A stretch of DNA of 64,000 nt. It comes from Candidatus Azambacteria bacterium. GTDB lineage: Bacteria > Patescibacteriota > Minisyncoccia > UBA10092. A model generated the notes under the pieces. It worked only from the letters and a program-made list of their open reading frames with translations. It ran no database searches and was not told where the DNA came from. The position numbers and the translations under genes are program-made. Positions 6,366 to 32,919 of this stretch are shown piece after piece (positions within the stretch are counted from its first letter, which is position 1; each line of letters starts with the position of its first letter). Location: contig JACRAJ010000001.1 in the NCBI GenBank assembly GCA_016213445.1, positions 78,203 to 142,202 of the forward strand. The letters are read 5' to 3'.

Positions 6366-6707
6366 TTAATATGGAATAAACGGGTTTGTTCTTCCAAGCG
6401 AATCGGCAACAACCGGCAAGGCGCCGTACATTTTAAGCGATTTATAAAAAGCGCTGTCAAGAATTCCGAACTGAAGATCCGGAAGCCGGCTCACCCTGAC
6501 TTCCAAAGAATTTAAAGGCGGGGCGGATGAAAGAATCGGAGGCTGTAAAGACAAACTCACGCCTCTGTAAATGAAAAAATAACCCGCGGCGGCGATTAAT
6601 ATTATAAGGCTCGCAATAATCAAATAAAGCAAAAAAGACCTTTTCGGCCGCTCCGGAGCCTTAAAAGAACCGAAAGTGCCCGATGGCGGGCTGGGAATGG
6701 TAATCAT
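6366..6707 (-). CDS. small single-pass membrane protein of the pilMNO operon (PilP-like role is possible)
   Basis: One TM helix and a C-terminal GRTNPFIPY tail. Start abuts the pilO stop (shared base at 6707). Confidence 0.45.
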   Translation of the reverse strand: MITIPSPPSGTFGSFKAPERPKRSFLLYLIIASLIILIAAAGYFFIYRGVSLSLQPPILSSAPPLNSLEVRVSRLPDLQFGILDSAFYKSLKMYGALPVVADSLGRTNPFIPY

Positions 6708-7249
6708 TATTGATAATAAGTGTTTACTGATAAATTAAATTCCAAATTGTTGGGATTAACGTTAATTTCGCCCGGCCTGATGCCATTGAAAGAAATGGCG
6801 GCAACATCAAAAAGCCTTAAACTTTTTTCCAGGGCCTTCACGTAATTTTGAAAATTCGGATAGGAGCCTTTCAGTTTGATATCCATTTTTAAAACTTTTA
6901 TTTTGAGGCTCGTAGAATCTTGAGGCTTAAAATCAACGCCCGAAAAAATCAAACCGTTTTCCGAGGCCGCGGCTTCCAAATTCACCAAGAGTTCGGGAAT
7001 ATTTTGCCCCGCCGGAACGGCTTGACTAAAAGAAACAAAATCGCTTGCCCGTTCATTATATTGGCCGATTAAATGTCGTAAATTCGCCGCCAGCTTTTCC
7101 CGTTGCGCCAAATTTTCCGCGTTGGCTTTTTTAAGTTCAAGCGCGGATTGGATATTATTCCAAAGCGGCAATAAAATCCAAAAGATCGCGGCAATCGCGA
7201 CAAAAAATAAACCCAGCGGAACAACTATATATTTTAAAAGATTAGACAT
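6707..7249 (-). CDS. pilO: pilus assembly protein PilO-like
   Basis: N-terminal TM helix, coiled coil and a ferredoxin-like C-terminus. Sits after pilN. Confidence 0.65.
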   Translation of the reverse strand: MSNLLKYIVVPLGLFFVAIAAIFWILLPLWNNIQSALELKKANAENLAQREKLAANLRHLIGQYNERASDFVSFSQAVPAGQNIPELLVNLEAAASENGLIFSGVDFKPQDSTSLKIKVLKMDIKLKGSYPNFQNYVKALEKSLRLFDVAAISFNGIRPGEINVNPNNLEFNLSVNTYYQ

Positions 7250-7251
7250 TT

Positions 7252-7785
7252 TTAATATTTTTTTCCAATAAATAATTGGGGATCGACGCCCACCGAAAGT
7301 TCAAATTCCAAGCCGTTGGTGCTGAAATTTATCCCTTTAACCTCAACGCTTTTAACATTGGCATTCTCGCGCAAAGCCACCATTTGCTTGGCTAAAGTGG
7401 TGTAATTTTGAGCAATGCCTTTAAGCTGAATAAGATTGGTTTTTCGATCGGCGTCAAATTTGATGAAAGTTATCTTCTGGTGAGTGAGCATTCCGATTGT
7501 GTTCAAAACATCGGAAAAACGGCTGTGGTTCCCAACCAAACTGCTGAATACATTTAAAGAATCGCTTAAATGCGCCACAGTATTTTCATCGCTAACATTA
7601 ACCTTGGCGGCGCTGATTTTAATCTGATTATTAATATCAACGATATCCGCCTGAACTTTGGATAGATAAACTTTTAAAAATATAAAAATGGCAATGCTTA
7701 AAAAAATCAAAGTTACGGAAACCCAAAGAGGCCAACGCCAGGTTGGCAGAGAAATTTTTGGTTTTTGAGGAATAATTTCTACCAT
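7252..7785 (-). CDS. pilN: pilus assembly protein PilN-like
   Basis: Short cytoplasmic N-terminus, a TM helix and a periplasmic domain. Its start codon shares base 7785 with the pilM stop codon. Confidence 0.65.
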   Translation of the reverse strand: MVEIIPQKPKISLPTWRWPLWVSVTLIFLSIAIFIFLKVYLSKVQADIVDINNQIKISAAKVNVSDENTVAHLSDSLNVFSSLVGNHSRFSDVLNTIGMLTHQKITFIKFDADRKTNLIQLKGIAQNYTTLAKQMVALRENANVKSVEVKGINFSTNGLEFELSVGVDPQLFIGKKY

Positions 7786-8861
7786 TATTGTATCGCCTTT
7801 AATGCTAACCCGACGGCTATCGTAAGCTCATGGCCAACCTCATCAATCGCCGGTTTTAATTTTTCGGAATAAGCAACCCTGCCAAAAGGAGCGCCGACAA
7901 TCGCATCCATTTTTAAGCGGCCGCTTAAATACTCGCCAAAGCCCGGCATTTTCGAGGCGCCGCCGTAAATTATTATTTTTTCAATTTTTTTCTTGGTTTT
8001 TGAAAAATAAAGATCAATAATATTTTGAGAAGCGTTAATAATATCGTTCAAAAGCGGGGTAAGAACTTCGGTTATTTGTTTATTGCCATTCATAACCTTC
8101 AAACCGCTTTCCTTTTTAAGATCCTCGGCGCGGCGCCAGTCAATATTCAAACTACTGGCCAATGCCCGCGTTAAATCCTCGCCGGAAGCCGCAATCGAGT
8201 GGCTGATTCGCAAATGCCCGCCGTCAACCACGCTGATAGTCGTATCTCTCGCTCCCATATCAATCAAAACCGCGGGAACCGTGTCATTGCCAATCAAAGC
8301 GCGAGTGGCCGAAACTGTTTCGAGTTCGATATTTAAAAGTTTTAATTCGGCCTCCTTGGCAATAACTGAATATTCACTGATAAGATCTTTGGGAATGGCG
8401 ACTAGAATAACCGAGATTCCGCCGGCGCCATTTTCGCCGATCACAGACCAATCGATAACCACGCTTTCGAGCGGCACCGGAACGTATTTTTTAGCCTCAA
8501 ACTGGATGGCGTTGACTAATTCCGATTCCGACATCTGGGGCAGCTCGATTACCGTGAGAAAACTGGAAAAAATCGGAACCGACATGTTGCCCTCTCTGGC
8601 ACTTATTGATCCTTCTTTAAAAAGCCTCCTGATCATTATAGCGGCTTTGCCGTTAAAAACTTTAGCCGTCCGCTCGCCGCTATCCCCGGCTGAATTTCCC
8701 GCCATTAAATCGTAATCGGTCAGAATGGCGTAATTTTCCAGCTTTGGCCGGCCGTCTTCGGCGGAAAGCTCGACGATTTTAATTGATAAGGTGCCGATAT
8801 CAATCCCTAAATAACTTTTCGGCCTTGACCCGATGCCAAATATATTGAAAGGTGAAGCCAT
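7785..8861 (-). CDS. pilM: pilus assembly protein PilM (actin-like ATPase fold)
   Basis: 358 aa with LGIDIGTLSIKIVEL and DMGARDTTISV phosphate-binding motifs, FtsA/PilM-like. Confidence 0.85.
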   Translation of the reverse strand: MASPFNIFGIGSRPKSYLGIDIGTLSIKIVELSAEDGRPKLENYAILTDYDLMAGNSAGDSGERTAKVFNGKAAIMIRRLFKEGSISAREGNMSVPIFSSFLTVIELPQMSESELVNAIQFEAKKYVPVPLESVVIDWSVIGENGAGGISVILVAIPKDLISEYSVIAKEAELKLLNIELETVSATRALIGNDTVPAVLIDMGARDTTISVVDGGHLRISHSIAASGEDLTRALASSLNIDWRRAEDLKKESGLKVMNGNKQITEVLTPLLNDIINASQNIIDLYFSKTKKKIEKIIIYGGASKMPGFGEYLSGRLKMDAIVGAPFGRVAYSEKLKPAIDEVGHELTIAVGLALKAIQ

Positions 8862-26253: not shown

Positions 26254-26320
26254 CTCTTATATCGGCAAACGCAATTTAAATGATTTGATTTTGTGTCTAC
26301 CATTTGATATAATTTTCTTA

Positions 26321-26791
26321 ATGAAAAGAAGATCTTGGACCGAAAAACAATTAAAAAACGCAGTTAAAAATTCTTTTAGTTATAGACAAGTTTTAACTAA
26401 ACTAAATTTGCGCGAAGCAGGCGGAAACTACGCTCAAATAAAAAGATATATTAGAGAGTTTGAATTGGATATAAAACATTTTAAAGGACGAGGTTGGAAT
26501 TTGGGAATGCGAGGCATAGGAATACCCCGAATACCTTTAGAAAAAATTTTAGTTAAGAACAGTAATTTTCAAAGTTTTAAGTTGAAAAAAAGATTATTTG
26601 CCGCTGATTTAAAACCTAAAAATTGCGAGGAATGCGGATGGTCGCAAAGAACAGCTGATGGTTATTTACCTTTGGAATTAGATCATATCAACGGCGATCA
26701 TTACGATAATCGGATAGATAATCTAAGAGTTTTATGTCCTAATTGCCATAGTTTAAAACCAACACATCGTGGTAGGATTAGAAAGATTTAA
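26321..26791 (+). CDS. HNH endonuclease (homing-type) ending immediately before tRNA-Leu
   Basis: N-terminal WTEKQLKNAVKNSFSYRQVLTKLNL DNA-binding-like module and HNH core LELDHINGDHYDNRIDNLRVLCPNCH. Confidence 0.8.
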   Translation: MKRRSWTEKQLKNAVKNSFSYRQVLTKLNLREAGGNYAQIKRYIREFELDIKHFKGRGWNLGMRGIGIPRIPLEKILVKNSNFQSFKLKKRLFAADLKPKNCEECGWSQRTADGYLPLELDHINGDHYDNRIDNLRVLCPNCHSLKPTHRGRIRKI

Positions 26792-28433: not shown

Positions 28434-28504
28434 CGGGGTGTAGTACAACGGCAGTATGCACGCATGGGGTGCGTGTGACCCGGGTTCAATTCCCGGCACC
28501 CCGA
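28434..28504 (+). tRNA. tRNA-Pro (anticodon GGG)
   Basis: Acceptor cggggtg/caccccg, anticodon stem-loop cacgc-ATGGGGT-gcgtg, T arm ccgggttcaattcccgg. Confidence 0.85.
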
Positions 28505-28607: not shown

Positions 28608-28632
28608 AGCGGTTCAATTCCGCTTGGCCCGA
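28608..28632 (+). pseudogene. tRNA T-arm/acceptor 3' fragment (unassigned)
   Basis: agcggttcaattccgct-tggcccg-a; no 5' half could be found. Confidence 0.5.
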
Positions 28633-28652
28633 CAAAAGAAACCCCGGAGCAC

Positions 28653-28685
28653 GTGACCCGGGTTCAATTCCCGGCACCCCGACCA
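28653..28685 (+). repeat. exact 30-nt duplicate of the tRNA-Pro 3' half, followed by CCA
   Basis: gtgacccgggttcaattcccggcaccccga is identical to 28475-28504. This copy is followed by cca. Confidence 0.85.
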
Positions 28686-28729: not shown

Positions 28730-29563
28730 TTATTTTTGAAGAATCATTTTTGCTTCTTCTATGAGTTTTTTCACCGCGTCTTTGGGAAGAGCAAGTGATT
28801 TTTCCAGTTCCTCCGGCGTCATTCTAACCAAGTCACACAAAAGGAGAATATTGGCCGCAGAAAATGATTGGAGCGTCCGAGAATCAACGCCTTTCATTAT
28901 GGTTACCGGATACAAACTAACATCATCTATCCACCGCGGCAGGGGGCGTTCCCGCGGATGGTCCCATGAAAGCATTACCATGTTTTTGCAATGACCGTAT
29001 TGGATTGATTGGGTTGAAAACCGGCTGTTGGTCACTATCCAGCATTCATCCATGTGGGGGGTGCGGCCGATTTTTGCCGACTCAACGAGATCCAAAAATC
29101 TTGCCCAAGTGGACATCGTGTCTTTTATGGTTATAAAAATAGAAAGTTCCTGCCGCAGCTTAGCCTCAATCATGGCGGTGCGGCCGTCTTTTCTTGCCAA
29201 AACGTCAACTTCATGGGTGATGCAGACGCCCTCCAAAATCGGCGGCAGTTCGGTGTCATAGCCGTATGCCTTTAATAATTCGGCAATATATTTTTCAAAA
29301 TCAAAACCGGCAGGCCCGAGGCGTAAAATGGCGTTTCTTAAATCATAGCGGCGGGAAGCAGCCGGCGCTTCTTTCTCAAGGAAAGCAATAACCATATCAT
29401 AGATTTCTTTTGTCCGCATTCCTTCGCGGGTGTTTTTTTCAACCTCGTCCGCTATCCGGTCGGCGACCTCCTCGCTTACGCCGGAACGCAAAATAGTCCG
29501 CCTGACTTTTTCCCGGTCAAACGGCTGTGATTCTCCGGCAGATTTTATGACATTTACGGCCAT
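28730..29563 (-). CDS. ATP-cone domain fused to a PD-(D/E)xK (Mrr-like) nuclease domain and a C-terminal HhH-like tail
   Basis: N-terminus VIKSAGESQPFDREKVRRTILRSGVSEEVADRIADEVE (ATP-cone), core ITHEVDVLARKDGRTAMIEAKLR (D...E-x-K), tail TPEELEKSLALPKDAVKKLIEEA. Confidence 0.65.
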   Translation of the reverse strand: MAVNVIKSAGESQPFDREKVRRTILRSGVSEEVADRIADEVEKNTREGMRTKEIYDMVIAFLEKEAPAASRRYDLRNAILRLGPAGFDFEKYIAELLKAYGYDTELPPILEGVCITHEVDVLARKDGRTAMIEAKLRQELSIFITIKDTMSTWARFLDLVESAKIGRTPHMDECWIVTNSRFSTQSIQYGHCKNMVMLSWDHPRERPLPRWIDDVSLYPVTIMKGVDSRTLQSFSAANILLLCDLVRMTPEELEKSLALPKDAVKKLIEEAKMILQK

Positions 29564-29657
29564 ATAAAGATATTACCAAAAACCTCCAGTTTTAGCGAGA
29601 GGTTTTGGGTTTGTCCTTGTCCCAAAAGATGACAATCCTCGGCACCTCGAAAAATAA

Positions 29658-29703
29658 AGCCACCAAAAACTCCGTCATTATTGCGACGGAGTTTTTGGTG
29701 GCT
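29658..29703 (-). terminator. 19-bp perfect hairpin; on the minus strand it is followed by UUAUUUUU
   Basis: agccaccaaaaactccgtc-attattgc-gacggagtttttggtggct. Lies 190 nt downstream of the ndk stop. Confidence 0.65.
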
Positions 29704-29892
29704 CGGAGAAGCTGTTTTAAAGATAATTTTGGCAATTTGCCAGGTGGGTGTCTTCAGCTTTCGATCCGCAGACCGAAGCGATATCAGACTCCCGAATAAA
29801 ATTATTCAGGCCAAAATCTTGTAAAACAACTTCCGCAGCCACTTATATTTTAACGCATTTGAAAATTAAAATATAACAAGTTAATCCACAGC

Positions 29893-30613: not shown

Positions 30614-31504
30614 TTATTTTTCTTTGTAAATATTGGTGGTGAAACCGTCGCTTAAAACTTTAATGTCGCCATTCCGGTCGGTGCGAAAAATATTCATATT
30701 AAACATCTTAAAGCGGCTCAATGTTGCCGGCGACGGATGGCCATAGCGATTTTTGGCGCCAACCTCGACTATTGCCGCCTTCGGAGAAACTGCTTTCAAA
30801 AAACTTAAAGAAGAAGAATATTTCGAGCCGTGATGACCGACTTTTAAAATATCCGATTTCAAATTATCGCCGTAAACCAAAAGCCGGTTTTCTATTTTAA
30901 AAGTGGCATCGCCGGTAAATAATATGGAAAAATCGCCGTAAATCAATTTGCCGACAATGGAAGTGTCATTAACGTCATTGCCATTTGCGCCGAATCCTTC
31001 GCTTTTGCCGTTAAAAACCCTGCCGCCGGAATTTTCATCGGGAGAAATAATGTCAAACTCCGCATTTTCATCAAAATGAACGGCATCGCCGGCCGATGCG
31101 ATTAAAACTTCCGCCCCATTGTCTCTAACGGCGGTTAAAAACTGATTATAATTATCGGTTTTTAAATCGGCGCCGTTTAAAATCACCAAGCCGATATCGT
31201 ATCTTCTCAAAATTTCAATCAGGCCGGCAACGTGATCGGCGTGAGGATGGGTAAGAAGAATCACGTCGATTCTTTTTTTAATCGGCGAAAGATATTTGCC
31301 CAATTTTTCCAAAACTTTGTTGCCGGGTCCGCCGTCGATCAGCATTGTCTGCCCTTTCGGCGTTTTTATTAAAATCGCGTCGCCTTGCCCGACATCCAAA
31401 AAATCCGCCTCCAAAATCCGGCCGGGCCTTTGGCTTAAAACCAAAAACCAAACTGCCGAAGCAATTGCAAAAAGGCCGATTAATATTGAAAATTTATTTT
31501 TCAC
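30614..31504 (-). CDS. ComEC C-terminal metallo-beta-lactamase domain, encoded as a separate ORF
   Basis: LLTHPHADHVAGL motif, an N-terminal TM helix and an ATGA overlap with the upstream comEC ORF. Confidence 0.8.
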   Translation of the reverse strand: MKNKFSILIGLFAIASAVWFLVLSQRPGRILEADFLDVGQGDAILIKTPKGQTMLIDGGPGNKVLEKLGKYLSPIKKRIDVILLTHPHADHVAGLIEILRRYDIGLVILNGADLKTDNYNQFLTAVRDNGAEVLIASAGDAVHFDENAEFDIISPDENSGGRVFNGKSEGFGANGNDVNDTSIVGKLIYGDFSILFTGDATFKIENRLLVYGDNLKSDILKVGHHGSKYSSSLSFLKAVSPKAAIVEVGAKNRYGHPSPATLSRFKMFNMNIFRTDRNGDIKVLSDGFTTNIYKEK

Positions 31505-32919
31505 AATGAAATTGAAGCAAACGGCAAAGAACTTAATATTTTAACAATCCAAATCTGGTATGAAAGCGCGAGCCATGCCGGAAAAATAAAAATTGAGGCG
31601 ATCTTTACGGAAATAAATCCCGTTAATCCGGCTAAAAAACCAAAAAGCATCGTGAATGGAACGGCGGGCAAGATTAAAACATTGGCCAAAATGGCGATTA
31701 AAGAAAAACGGTTGAAACTGAAAAGAACAACCGGCAAAGTGGCAACCCGGGCCGATAAAGTGGCCGCCAAATTGTCGCGAAAAGACAAAAAATTCGGCAG
31801 ACGGGAAAATCGGCTCGCAAAATGAGGCGCTAAATATACCAATCCCAAAGTGGCCAAAAATGAAAGCTGAAAACCGGCATCGTATCGCAACAGATAAGGA
31901 TTTAAAAATAGCATAACGGCGGCGGCAAAAATAATAGCGTTGGTTATGCTGTAAAGCCGGCCTTCATGCCTGGCCAAAATAAGCAAGCCGCCCATAACTG
32001 CTGCCCGCACCACCGAAGCGCCGGCGCCGGCAATCAAAGTGAATAAAACCAGGCAAACGCCGGCCACCCAGAAAATCAATCTTCTCGGCAAAAATAAATA
32101 GCCCAAAAAATTTAAAAGCATAACGCTGATGATGGAAATGTTATAACCGGAGATAGCCACAATGTGGCTGGTGCCGGTAATATTGAAAGCGTCGGTCAAA
32201 TCGGCGGGCAAAGTCCGCCTGGCGCCAACCAAAAGAGCGGCTAAAAAAGAAGCTTGCGGCTCCAAAAGAATTTTATTGATAACGCCGACAAACGATTTTT
32301 TAATTTCCAAAAGACGGCCGTAAAAATTTTTAACGGCCGGCCGCTCGATCAAATCAATTTTCGGATACCGGCTGATCAGAAAAATTCCATCCTTCGCCAA
32401 ATAATTTTTATAATCAAAACCGGACTCGCCGGCGCGAGATTCCGGCGATTCGATTTTTCCGTTTATTTTCAAAATATCGCCGTAAAAGTATTCCGGATAA
32501 AGCTTAGTTTTCACGAGAACGCGGCCAAGCGCGCCGTTTTCCAGAACATATTGGGCGAAATCCGAACGCCGATCCGGTTCTTCGACAATCTTTCCGGAAA
32601 AATTTATTTTTTCTCCGATGACAAAATTGGCGCCGGCCAAACTGCCGGCGTAATTAAAAACCTTAAAACTGCGCCAAAATCCAAAAGCCAAGGCCAAAAG
32701 GCAAAATCCGAAAATTATTTTAATTTTCCAGCCCAAAACTGGTCCGCCTCTGGCGGAAAAATCCGGCTTATTCCTTTTTAAAACGGCAGTAGCTAAAATC
32801 GAAAAAGAAAAAACAAAAATCCCGCCGATAAGCGCGGGCGGGATTTTTATTGTCGAATATGCAAATACGCCTCCGATAAAACTCAGCAGAAAAAGCGCAA
32901 AAATTTTACTTTTCGCCAT
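31501..32919 (-). CDS. comEC: ComEC/Rec2 DNA-uptake channel (membrane competence domain)
   Basis: 472-aa polytopic protein with conserved TGTSHIVAISGYNI. Confidence 0.8.
   Translation of the reverse strand: MAKSKIFALFLLSFIGGVFAYSTIKIPPALIGGIFVFSFSILATAVLKRNKPDFSARGGPVLGWKIKIIFGFCLLALAFGFWRSFKVFNYAGSLAGANFVIGEKINFSGKIVEEPDRRSDFAQYVLENGALGRVLVKTKLYPEYFYGDILKINGKIESPESRAGESGFDYKNYLAKDGIFLISRYPKIDLIERPAVKNFYGRLLEIKKSFVGVINKILLEPQASFLAALLVGARRTLPADLTDAFNITGTSHIVAISGYNISIISVMLLNFLGYLFLPRRLIFWVAGVCLVLFTLIAGAGASVVRAAVMGGLLILARHEGRLYSITNAIIFAAAVMLFLNPYLLRYDAGFQLSFLATLGLVYLAPHFASRFSRLPNFLSFRDNLAATLSARVATLPVVLFSFNRFSLIAILANVLILPAVPFTMLFGFLAGLTGFISVKIASIFIFPAWLALSYQIWIVKILSSLPFASISL
32728..32757. repeat. 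degenerate double-hairpin palindrome copy, in frame in comEC
   Basis: ...ggtccgcctctggcgga encodes SARGGPVLG. The right half is 14/15 to the consensus. Confidence 0.5.

Follow-up and report, generated by a model that had tools for sequence, protein, structure and literature searches.

A nucleotide-sensor/nuclease fusion of the AF1548 family in a Candidatus Azambacteria genome and its possible role in nucleotide salvage

The gene, its three domains and its family

The DNA analysed here, a stretch of 64,000 nucleotides from the Candidatus Azambacteria contig JACRAJ010000001.1 (hereafter the window), contains on its minus strand an open reading frame (ORF), 28730–29563, which begins with an ATG at 29563 and specifies a protein of 277 amino acids (aa). 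The protein carries an ATP-cone, a PD-(D/E)xK nuclease core and a helix-hairpin-helix (HhH)-type tail, in that order. On one side of the gene lie rpmB, a tRNA-Pro(GGG) gene and a gene for an M50 protease; on the other are a 6S-like element, ndk, a split comEC and ftsZ. The gene and its parts are as follows.

28730–29563, minus strand: whole gene for the ATP-cone / PD-(D/E)xK nuclease / HhH protein of the AF1548 family (ORF, domains, AlphaFold2 model)
29345–29554, minus strand: ATP-cone domain, aa 4–73, a predicted adenine-nucleotide sensor (PF03477)
29291–29341, minus strand: linker, aa 75–91, L-x7-GPxGFxFE, leading from the last ATP-cone helix to helix 1 of the nuclease (alignments)
28979–29308, minus strand: PD-(D/E)xK (Mrr_cat-type) nuclease core, aa 86–195 (PF04471, match to 1Y88)
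28739–28912, minus strand: AF1548-like C-terminal helix-hairpin-helix-type domain, aa 218–275 (PF22357, alignment to 1Y88, model)
29294–29296, 29204–29206, 29165–29167 and 29159–29161, minus strand: catalytic residues E90, D120, E133 and K135, respectively (coordinates checked)

An earlier, sequence-only reading of this stretch had proposed an ATP-cone, an Mrr-like nuclease and an HhH-like tail, and Pfam, the structure 1Y88 and Foldseek agree on all three. Both of the profiles by which that reading was to be checked score above cut-off, the ATP-cone comfortably (PF03477, aa 4–73, E 2.4e-10, 41.3 bits against 25.8) and Mrr_cat marginally (PF04471, aa 86–195, E 1.4e-4, 22.3 bits against 21); the AF1548-like C-terminal domain also exceeds its cut-off (PF22357, aa 218–275, E 8.2e-12, 45.5 bits against 23.9). 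No match to PF01870 (Hjc) was found in Pfam. Residues 92–275 align with AF1548 of Archaeoglobus fulgidus (PDB 1Y88; phmmer, E 1.9e-25). The AlphaFold2 model, built from 45 homologues, is confident throughout (pLDDT 94.4, pTM 0.87); in Foldseek its C-terminal two-thirds superpose on 1Y88 (E 2e-15, TM 0.83 on the target) and its N-terminus matches, in ranks after 1Y88, the ATP-cones of NrdR and of ribonucleotide reductases (RNRs). Remoter structural neighbours are NucS/EndoMS, MspJI, AspBHI, Can2 and Cdn1. The AF1548-like_C domain, which has four helices in the model, is presumed to be a sequence-independent nucleic-acid binder; this HhH-type tail also weakly matches a topoisomerase I model in its C-terminal part (positions 673–729).

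The fusion is not unusual. It is the standard, database-annotated architecture of the AF1548 family, and the window gene is a further member of this known and catalogued family of thousands. PF22357 scores above its gathering threshold, the core is homologous to 1Y88, and the ATP-cone is joined to it by the family's LGPxG(F/Y)xFE linker. AF1548 itself (PF04471 + PF22357, COG1787) is about 34% identical to the window protein, with which it shares the nuclease and HhH domains and the same D-ExK triad. Its full-length archaeal orthologue (P0271, 265 aa), 99% identical to AF1548 and recovered in a search with the AF1548 sequence, is laid out in the same three domains, the ATP-cone among them, and other archaeal members carry the ATP-cone too. 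The family is found in Archaea, Patescibacteria, Bacteroidota and Chlamydiota. With clusters formed at 50% identity, an exhaustive profile search gave 1744 of them at E<=1e-3, and 545 when the limit was set at E<=1e-30. Of the 150 top-ranking clusters nearly all are 263–298 aa long and match the whole profile; the Bacteroidota/Chlamydiota branch comprises at least 6551 clusters at 90% identity. Among the Archaea, members occur in Archaeoglobi, Geoglobus, Ferroglobus, Korarchaeota, Bathyarchaeia, Nanoarchaeota, Aenigmarchaeota and Altiarchaeales.

In databases these proteins go under the names "ATP cone domain-containing protein," "restriction endonuclease," "ATPase" and, in IMG, "Holliday junction resolvase." AF1548 was predicted to be a restriction endonuclease, with a triad of D38, E51 and K53, in the GOS paper (PMC1821046), and 1Y88 and COG1787 were clustered with Mrr by Steczkiewicz et al. 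in 2012 (PMC3424549).

Two points of annotation deserve mention. The crystallised 1Y88 chain is 199 aa long and its alignment begins only at the equivalent of residue 92 of the window protein, so that neither the ATP-cone nor the linker, nor the conserved Glu, is part of it; the structure, which is thus partial and has been available since 2004, probably rests on a truncated gene model missing the sensor domain and one conserved acidic residue. The same family presents a second pitfall, since 8 of the 22 protein clusters closest to the window protein are 253-aa gene calls which start 24 residues late and lose the Pfam match to the ATP-cone, one of them being 100% identical to the window protein. 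The 253-aa form (P0001) drops the conserved residues K7, G10 and K19, whereas the ATG at 29563 retains the conserved N-terminus.

No variation at the four catalytic residues is seen among 45 Patescibacteria homologues, which range from 80% down to 43% identity, or in an alignment of 48 sequences which took in 28 from Archaea, and 30 sequences from Bacteroidota and Chlamydiota keep them too. The motif HEVDVLA holds D120 and the motif IEAKLR holds E133-x-K135, so that the catalytic D/E-x-K noted in the sequence-only reading is present and no loss of it was observed. Because these residues are kept in all alignments the window protein is very probably active as a nuclease, judging from its sequence. 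No part of the protein is better conserved than the linker, L75-x7-G83-P84-x-G86-x-x-F89-E90, by which the last helix of the ATP-cone leads straight to E90, the first of the catalytic residues. Archaea and Patescibacteria show no variation at L75, G83, P84, G86, F89 and E90, the same motif is present in the Bacteroidota/Chlamydiota branch, and the window sequence reads GPAGFDFEK. This conservation is a hint, although not proof, of direct mechanical coupling between ATP-cone and nuclease.

ATP-cones have been functionally characterised in ribonucleotide reductases and in NrdR, and are present besides in some 2-phosphoglycerate kinase models. When the window ATP-cone was compared with the PDB by phmmer as a single sequence, only designed helical proteins came back, and the domain was aligned to Escherichia coli NrdR through the family profile. 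The inner nucleotide-binding site of that protein consists of K53, S54, P60, F61, K65, L66, R72, S105 and I108, which cover the adenine, form a hydrophobic pocket for it or contact the phosphates (bioRxiv 10.1101/2025.03.28.645925). The counterparts in the window protein are, in the same order, K7, S8, P14, F15, K19, V20, R26, T51 and I54. In all alignments K7 and G10 are invariant and K19 and T51 at least 90% conserved; R26 and I54 reach at least 90% among the Patescibacteria members. The Ser which follows the lid Lys is common to the window protein and E. coli NrdR, whereas RNR and archaeal cones have Arg at this position; the lid is accordingly of the canonical form VRKRDGR in the archaeal proteins and of an NrdR-like form, VIKSAGE, in that of the window. 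NrdR and the RNRs which possess an ATP-cone thus share with the window protein a cone with NrdR-type inner-site residues, and from this we infer that its ATP-cone may bind an adenine nucleotide at the inner site. They differ in their effector, NrdR being a zinc-ribbon DNA binder and RNR a reductase, while that of the window protein is a nuclease. By analogy they suggest a likely mode of action, namely a nucleotide-dependent change of conformation or oligomeric state. RNR genes adjoin the nuclease gene in none of the loci examined.

One might take these features to describe a nucleotide-responsive DNA-binding regulator, an analogue of NrdR in which a nuclease fold and an HhH domain have replaced the zinc ribbon and which controls a downstream operon. 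The ATP-cone is indeed closest to that of NrdR, and the gene stands first in bacterial operons. Nuclease folds recruited for binding alone usually lose their catalytic residues, however, and here all four are invariant across Archaea, Patescibacteria and Bacteroidota; nor is there any downstream operon in Patescibacteria and most Archaea. We consider such a function very unlikely.

Operon partners and a role in nucleotide salvage

The genes accompanying the nuclease were surveyed in 85 loci of the Bacteroidota/Chlamydiota branch carrying nuclease homologues, partner genes being scored by best probe. On plasmids of Criblamydia and Pontibacter the same compact operon of four overlapping genes begins with a full-length homologue. 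It is followed by genes for a beta-CASP nuclease of the metallo-beta-lactamase (MBL) fold (Lactamase_B + Beta-Casp + RMMBL domains), a TIGR02645 phosphorylase and a PRK07199 ribose-phosphate diphosphokinase resembling phosphoribosyl pyrophosphate (PRPP) synthase (hereafter PRS-like). The TIGR02645 product, a "putative thymidine phosphorylase," is 37–41% identical to bona fide AMP phosphorylase. A co-directional beta-CASP gene occupies position +1 or +2 in 46 of the 80 loci which have a downstream gene. The phosphorylase is present in 16 of the 85 loci and the PRS-like gene in 13, and all three partners occur together in 12 of the 54 loci with three or more downstream genes. When the nuclease sequences were collapsed at 60% identity, beta-CASP genes were found in 12 of 28 groups and phosphorylase genes in 6 of 28; a rough estimate puts the chance expectation for such groups at well under one.

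Upstream and on the same strand, the Bacteroidota loci contain genes for tandem universal stress proteins (Usp), Hsp20, phosphofructokinase (PFK), 2-hydroxyacid dehydrogenase, MgtC, an ion channel, P-type ATPases and Crp-type regulators, a set which looks like an energy-stress or hypoxia island. In the surveyed loci L055–L137 a co-directional island recurs with two to four tandem Usp genes, PFK, MgtC/DUF4010 and 2-hydroxyacid dehydrogenase, as well as Hsp20, a P-type ATPase and a fusion of response-regulator, cyclic nucleoside monophosphate-binding (cNMP) and Crp domains. After these come the genes for the nuclease, the beta-CASP enzyme, the phosphorylase and the PRS-like protein, with several conserved small proteins which have no Pfam match (clusters 5, 8, 16 and 17). 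In six Bacteroidota loci (L055, L056 at 7866–8489, L068, L084, L088 and L089) an AAA_28 (PF13521) P-loop protein with a weak match to deoxynucleoside kinase (dNK) overlaps or lies near the nuclease gene, and is another neighbour which handles nucleosides or nucleotides.

An archaeal counterpart comes from a Bathyarchaeia genome, in which genes for ribose-1,5-bisphosphate (R15P) isomerase (TIGR00511, 419 bits against a cut-off of 314) and AMP phosphorylase (TIGR03327, 617 bits against 535) are followed by the nuclease gene, which overlaps the end of the AMP phosphorylase gene by 11 nt. In Bathyarchaeia the family thus shares an operon with AMP phosphorylase and R15P isomerase; in Bacteroidota and Chlamydiota it does so with an enzyme resembling AMP phosphorylase. 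[quoted passage not shown]

Since the family is tied to nucleotide catabolism in two domains of life, and with different gene orders, the breakdown of nucleic acid for nucleotide or ribose salvage, with the ATP-cone acting as switch, is the best-supported role for it. Our preferred reading, to which we give a probability of about 0.5, is that of an adenine-nucleotide-gated nuclease which feeds nucleic acid into nucleotide salvage or catabolism. We infer here not only the role in salvage or catabolism but also the binding of nucleotide, the direction of regulation and the substrate, whether DNA or RNA. To our knowledge no nuclease has been described as part of the AMP-phosphorylase pathway.

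Under the preferred reading the ATP-cone's inner site would take up an adenine nucleotide, and the invariant short linker would connect this domain to the first catalytic Glu of the PD-(D/E)xK endonuclease, while the HhH-type C-terminal domain would grip the nucleic-acid backbone without sequence specificity. In RNR and NrdR the binding of nucleotide to the ATP-cone alters the oligomeric state and switches activity; by analogy the adenylate or dATP status of the cell might switch the nuclease on or off. Bulk turnover would then proceed from endonuclease to exonuclease, to NMPs, to phosphorylase and finally to ribose-1,5-bisphosphate or PRPP. A more ambitious version, which we put forward tentatively and regard as somewhat improbable, is that the AF1548 family supplies the missing entry enzyme of nucleic-acid catabolism and constitutes the first nuclease under ATP-cone control, responding to the level of adenylate or dATP and starting the breakdown of DNA or RNA together with the beta-CASP exonuclease and passing NMPs by way of AMP phosphorylase to ribose-1,5-bisphosphate, PRPP and central metabolism.

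Thousands of proteins, drawn from both prokaryotic domains, join this sensor to an intact nuclease. Were the proposal correct, ATP-cone allostery would reach past ribonucleotide reduction into the opposite, degradative arm of nucleotide homeostasis, in Archaea as well as in CPR bacteria and Bacteroidota, and the protein would represent a simple allosteric nuclease. If nucleotide levels gate a nuclease which feeds the AMP-phosphorylase route, this would explain how cells choose the moment at which to cannibalise nucleic acid. The explanation would also cover the genome-reduced Patescibacteria and the DPANN archaea, both of which are thought to depend on salvaged nucleotides. The earlier suggestion that the inability of the host to make nucleotides explains the gene was not borne out: free-living Archaeoglobi and Bacteroidota have members of the family too, and for this reason nucleotide auxotrophy forms no part of our explanation.

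Several observations weigh against the preferred reading. Genes for beta-CASP, AMP-phosphorylase-like, PRS-like and R15P isomerase proteins adjoin the nuclease in 0 of 46 Patescibacteria loci, the only one of these loci with a beta-CASP gene (L033) having it about 3 kb away, and none of the four is present in the 64-kb window; for the Patescibacteria branch, then, the role in salvage is extrapolated from homologues which are 31–35% identical. Loci within a lineage are not phylogenetically independent of one another, which qualifies the counts given above, and most of the other archaeal contexts examined were uninformative. The tyrosine Y131 of the NrdR outer site, which discriminates between ATP and dATP, is not conserved in the window protein, where it maps to the variable residue N77, so that a second, dATP-discriminating site is doubtful, and with it the sensing of dATP by this ATP-cone. 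Mrr_cat-type nucleases are classically restriction enzymes. Finally, the literature on ATP-cone nucleases, AF1548 and COG1787 gave no functional study of any member, and in this respect the fusion appears to be functionally uncharacterised, as had been supposed.

A nucleotide-salvage switch was one of two roles originally suggested for the gene; the gene context of the family favours it, with the reservation that the partners are not adjacent to the nuclease in the Patescibacteria branch. It had also been asked, as a test which would count against defence, whether homologues would prove to be uniformly embedded in nucleotide-metabolism operons. They are so placed at many bacterial loci and at one archaeal locus, but not uniformly. 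In the window itself ndk, an NrnA-like DHH protein and comEC are encoded near the nuclease gene, and in relatives of 78–80% identity the adjacent genes are NUDIX and ndk; this neighbourhood is weakly compatible with a role in salvage.

The same sets of neighbours bear upon the possibility of a housekeeping DNA repair or recombination nuclease, structure-specific in the manner of NucS/EndoMS or Hjc, in which the ATP-cone would license incision only when ATP or deoxynucleoside triphosphates (dNTPs) are at hand for resynthesis. NucS/EndoMS chains are among the structural neighbours, members are labelled "Holliday junction resolvase" in IMG, the tail is an HhH DNA-binding domain, and the core-gene-like conservation and housekeeping neighbours would suit such a function; in a Korarchaeota locus there is moreover a methylpurine DNA glycosylase near the gene. 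Against this, no repair gene recurs as a neighbour in the 46 Patescibacteria and 85 other bacterial loci, and a Geoglobus locus has a canonical, separate Hjc gene about 2 kb downstream. Instead of ligases, polymerases or recombinases, the partners which recur are a beta-CASP nuclease and enzymes of nucleotide catabolism. We regard a repair function as unlikely.

Evidence bearing on a defence role

The other role originally suggested was defence against phages or plasmids. In the form considered here the protein would be a stand-alone nuclease, Type IV-like or acting by abortive infection, whose ATP-cone detects a nucleotide pool disturbed by infection and unleashes DNA cleavage. A number of features lend themselves to this view. 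The catalytic domain scores as Mrr_cat, the structural neighbours include MspJI, AspBHI, Can2 and Cdn1, COG1787 has been counted among restriction and defence genes in surveys, two homologues are plasmid-borne, and the window gene is situated at a recombination hot spot beside a tRNA gene. Compared directly with Mrr and the Type IV enzymes MspJI and AspBHI, the window protein has the same Mrr_cat-type catalytic fold and motif; it differs from them in having neither a modified-DNA reader nor a defence context and in its core-gene-like conservation. No domain which might read modified DNA was found in the window protein, the N-terminus of which is the ATP-cone.

PADLOC gave no significant match for the window protein (best E 0.0022) and no matches for the partners in the four-gene operon. 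No defence gene was found as a conserved neighbour in the 46 Patescibacteria loci. These have no neighbour which recurs from lineage to lineage, synteny being confined to sublineages, and the genes which surround the nuclease are of a housekeeping nature: L28, PrmC, leucyl aminopeptidase, ClpB-like and membrane proteins. When 150 neighbouring proteins were compared with defence models only scattered single matches resulted; six of these, to "mad2," stem from loci with a PrmC-like housekeeping methyltransferase as neighbour. The methyltransferase which recurs beside the gene is PrmC-like by sequence, with small-methyltransferase Pfam domains. No conserved methylase partner was found in the 46 Patescibacteria or the 85 other bacterial loci, and a restriction-modification system was accordingly rejected as an explanation. 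Neither IMG/VR nor the GenBank phages contained a viral copy, and BFVD yielded single-domain matches only, none of full length.

The evolutionary behaviour of the gene is likewise that of a core gene. Two relatives, at loci designated L047 (80% identity) and L050 (78%), hold the nuclease gene at the same locus as does the window, and the identity of the nuclease between these three genomes, 78–80%, is equal to that of FtsZ. Less conserved than the nuclease are L28 (66–70%), the MBL part of ComEC (68–69%), ComEC (54–56%) and the M50 protease (43–48%). Typical defence genes are fast-evolving and patchy in distribution; the window gene is a stand-alone, vertically inherited gene of core type in a Patescibacteria genome, and in other lineages its operon partners are metabolic.

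A role in phage or plasmid defence is thus not supported, nothing pointing to it, and we judge it improbable, more so than a function in repair. The interpretation offered in the sequence-only reading is, as a whole, partly supported, while the observation on which it was built is confirmed. The case also suggests a caution of wider application, in that a sensor-domain nuclease beside a tRNA gene is not by itself a defence gene.

The locus in the window and in two relatives

The features which surround the nuclease gene and bear on its history are these.

28434–28504, plus strand: tRNA-Pro(GGG), convergent with the nuclease gene (ARAGORN; Rfam 57.9 bits)
28611–28682, plus strand: two tRNA 3'-end fragments, 28611–28636 and 28646–28682, at the left junction of the inverted gene
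29657–29704, minus strand: intrinsic terminator, a 20-bp hairpin followed by a T-run, which closes the upstream ndk / 6S-like unit

The fragment at 28646–28682 is a 37-nt copy of the 3' end of the tRNA-Pro gene, 92% identical to it and exact over 30 nt, and an exact copy of this length was obtained in 0 of 100 shuffles. The tRNA 3'-end fragments are thus real, as was noted when the locus was called a tRNA integration scar. The conclusion drawn from them did not hold, since the nuclease gene lies outside the pair of repeats and is resident in the relatives rather than being cargo. In both L047 and L050 the nuclease gene is on the same strand as the tRNA-Pro gene and is followed by NUDIX and ndk; in L050 the tRNA-Pro gene ends 6 nt upstream of the nuclease ATG. 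BLASTN showed that 28730–29565 of the window is inverted relative to 7999–8834 of L050 and 8000–8839 of L047, both flanks being collinear. The inverted segment, 836 bp, is exactly the nuclease gene, and the NUDIX gene of the relatives is absent from the window. No inverted repeats able to explain an 836-bp flip were found. The possibility that the gene is the cargo of an island at tRNA-Pro was rejected, the flanking synteny being conserved and only the 836-bp gene inverted. The nuclease gene is a resident and not the cargo of a tRNA-integrated element, and the tRNA fragments flank an inversion the size of the gene.

In L047 a 1.6-kb insertion (6388–7933) separates the tRNA-Pro gene from the nuclease gene. 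It has no flanking tRNA repeat and contains two genes, one for a 371-aa protein without a Pfam match and the other for a 146-aa protein with a weak match to cupredoxin. The presence of this insertion in L047, and of the inversion and tRNA fragments in the window, marks the site as a recombination hot spot. The terminator at 29657–29704 has a further consequence, in that the nuclease gene needs its own promoter within 29564–29656.

Between ndk and the nuclease gene there is a sub-threshold match to 6S RNA in Rfam (29696–29843, minus strand; 28.8 bits, gathering score 46.4, E 0.009), and the 20-bp terminator hairpin forms the end of the element. At the corresponding place in L050 about 190 nt of this region show 75% conservation, and the element may represent a divergent 6S RNA of the Patescibacteria.

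A tRNA gene lies within 250 bp of the nuclease gene in the window and in L003, L004, L009, L011, L014, L017 and L050, which represent no more than three or four independent synteny groups. In L003, L004 and L009 it is a tRNA-Leu gene, 23–131 nt after the nuclease gene. A tRNA-Pro gene is convergent and 7–664 nt away in L011, L014, L016 and L017, and stands directly upstream in L050. A role in RNA processing was considered on account of this proximity; given the small number of independent synteny groups we record it as an observation.

Two other features of the window may be mentioned. An HNH-endonuclease-like ORF of 168 aa (26285–26791, plus strand) lies between genes for tRNA-Cys and tRNA-Leu, and L047 has an HNH-like gene 77% identical to it in the same slot. 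ComEC is specified at 30614–32919 on the minus strand by two overlapping ORFs, one containing the Competence/DUF4131 part and the other a separate Lactamase_B part; the same split is found in L047 and L050.

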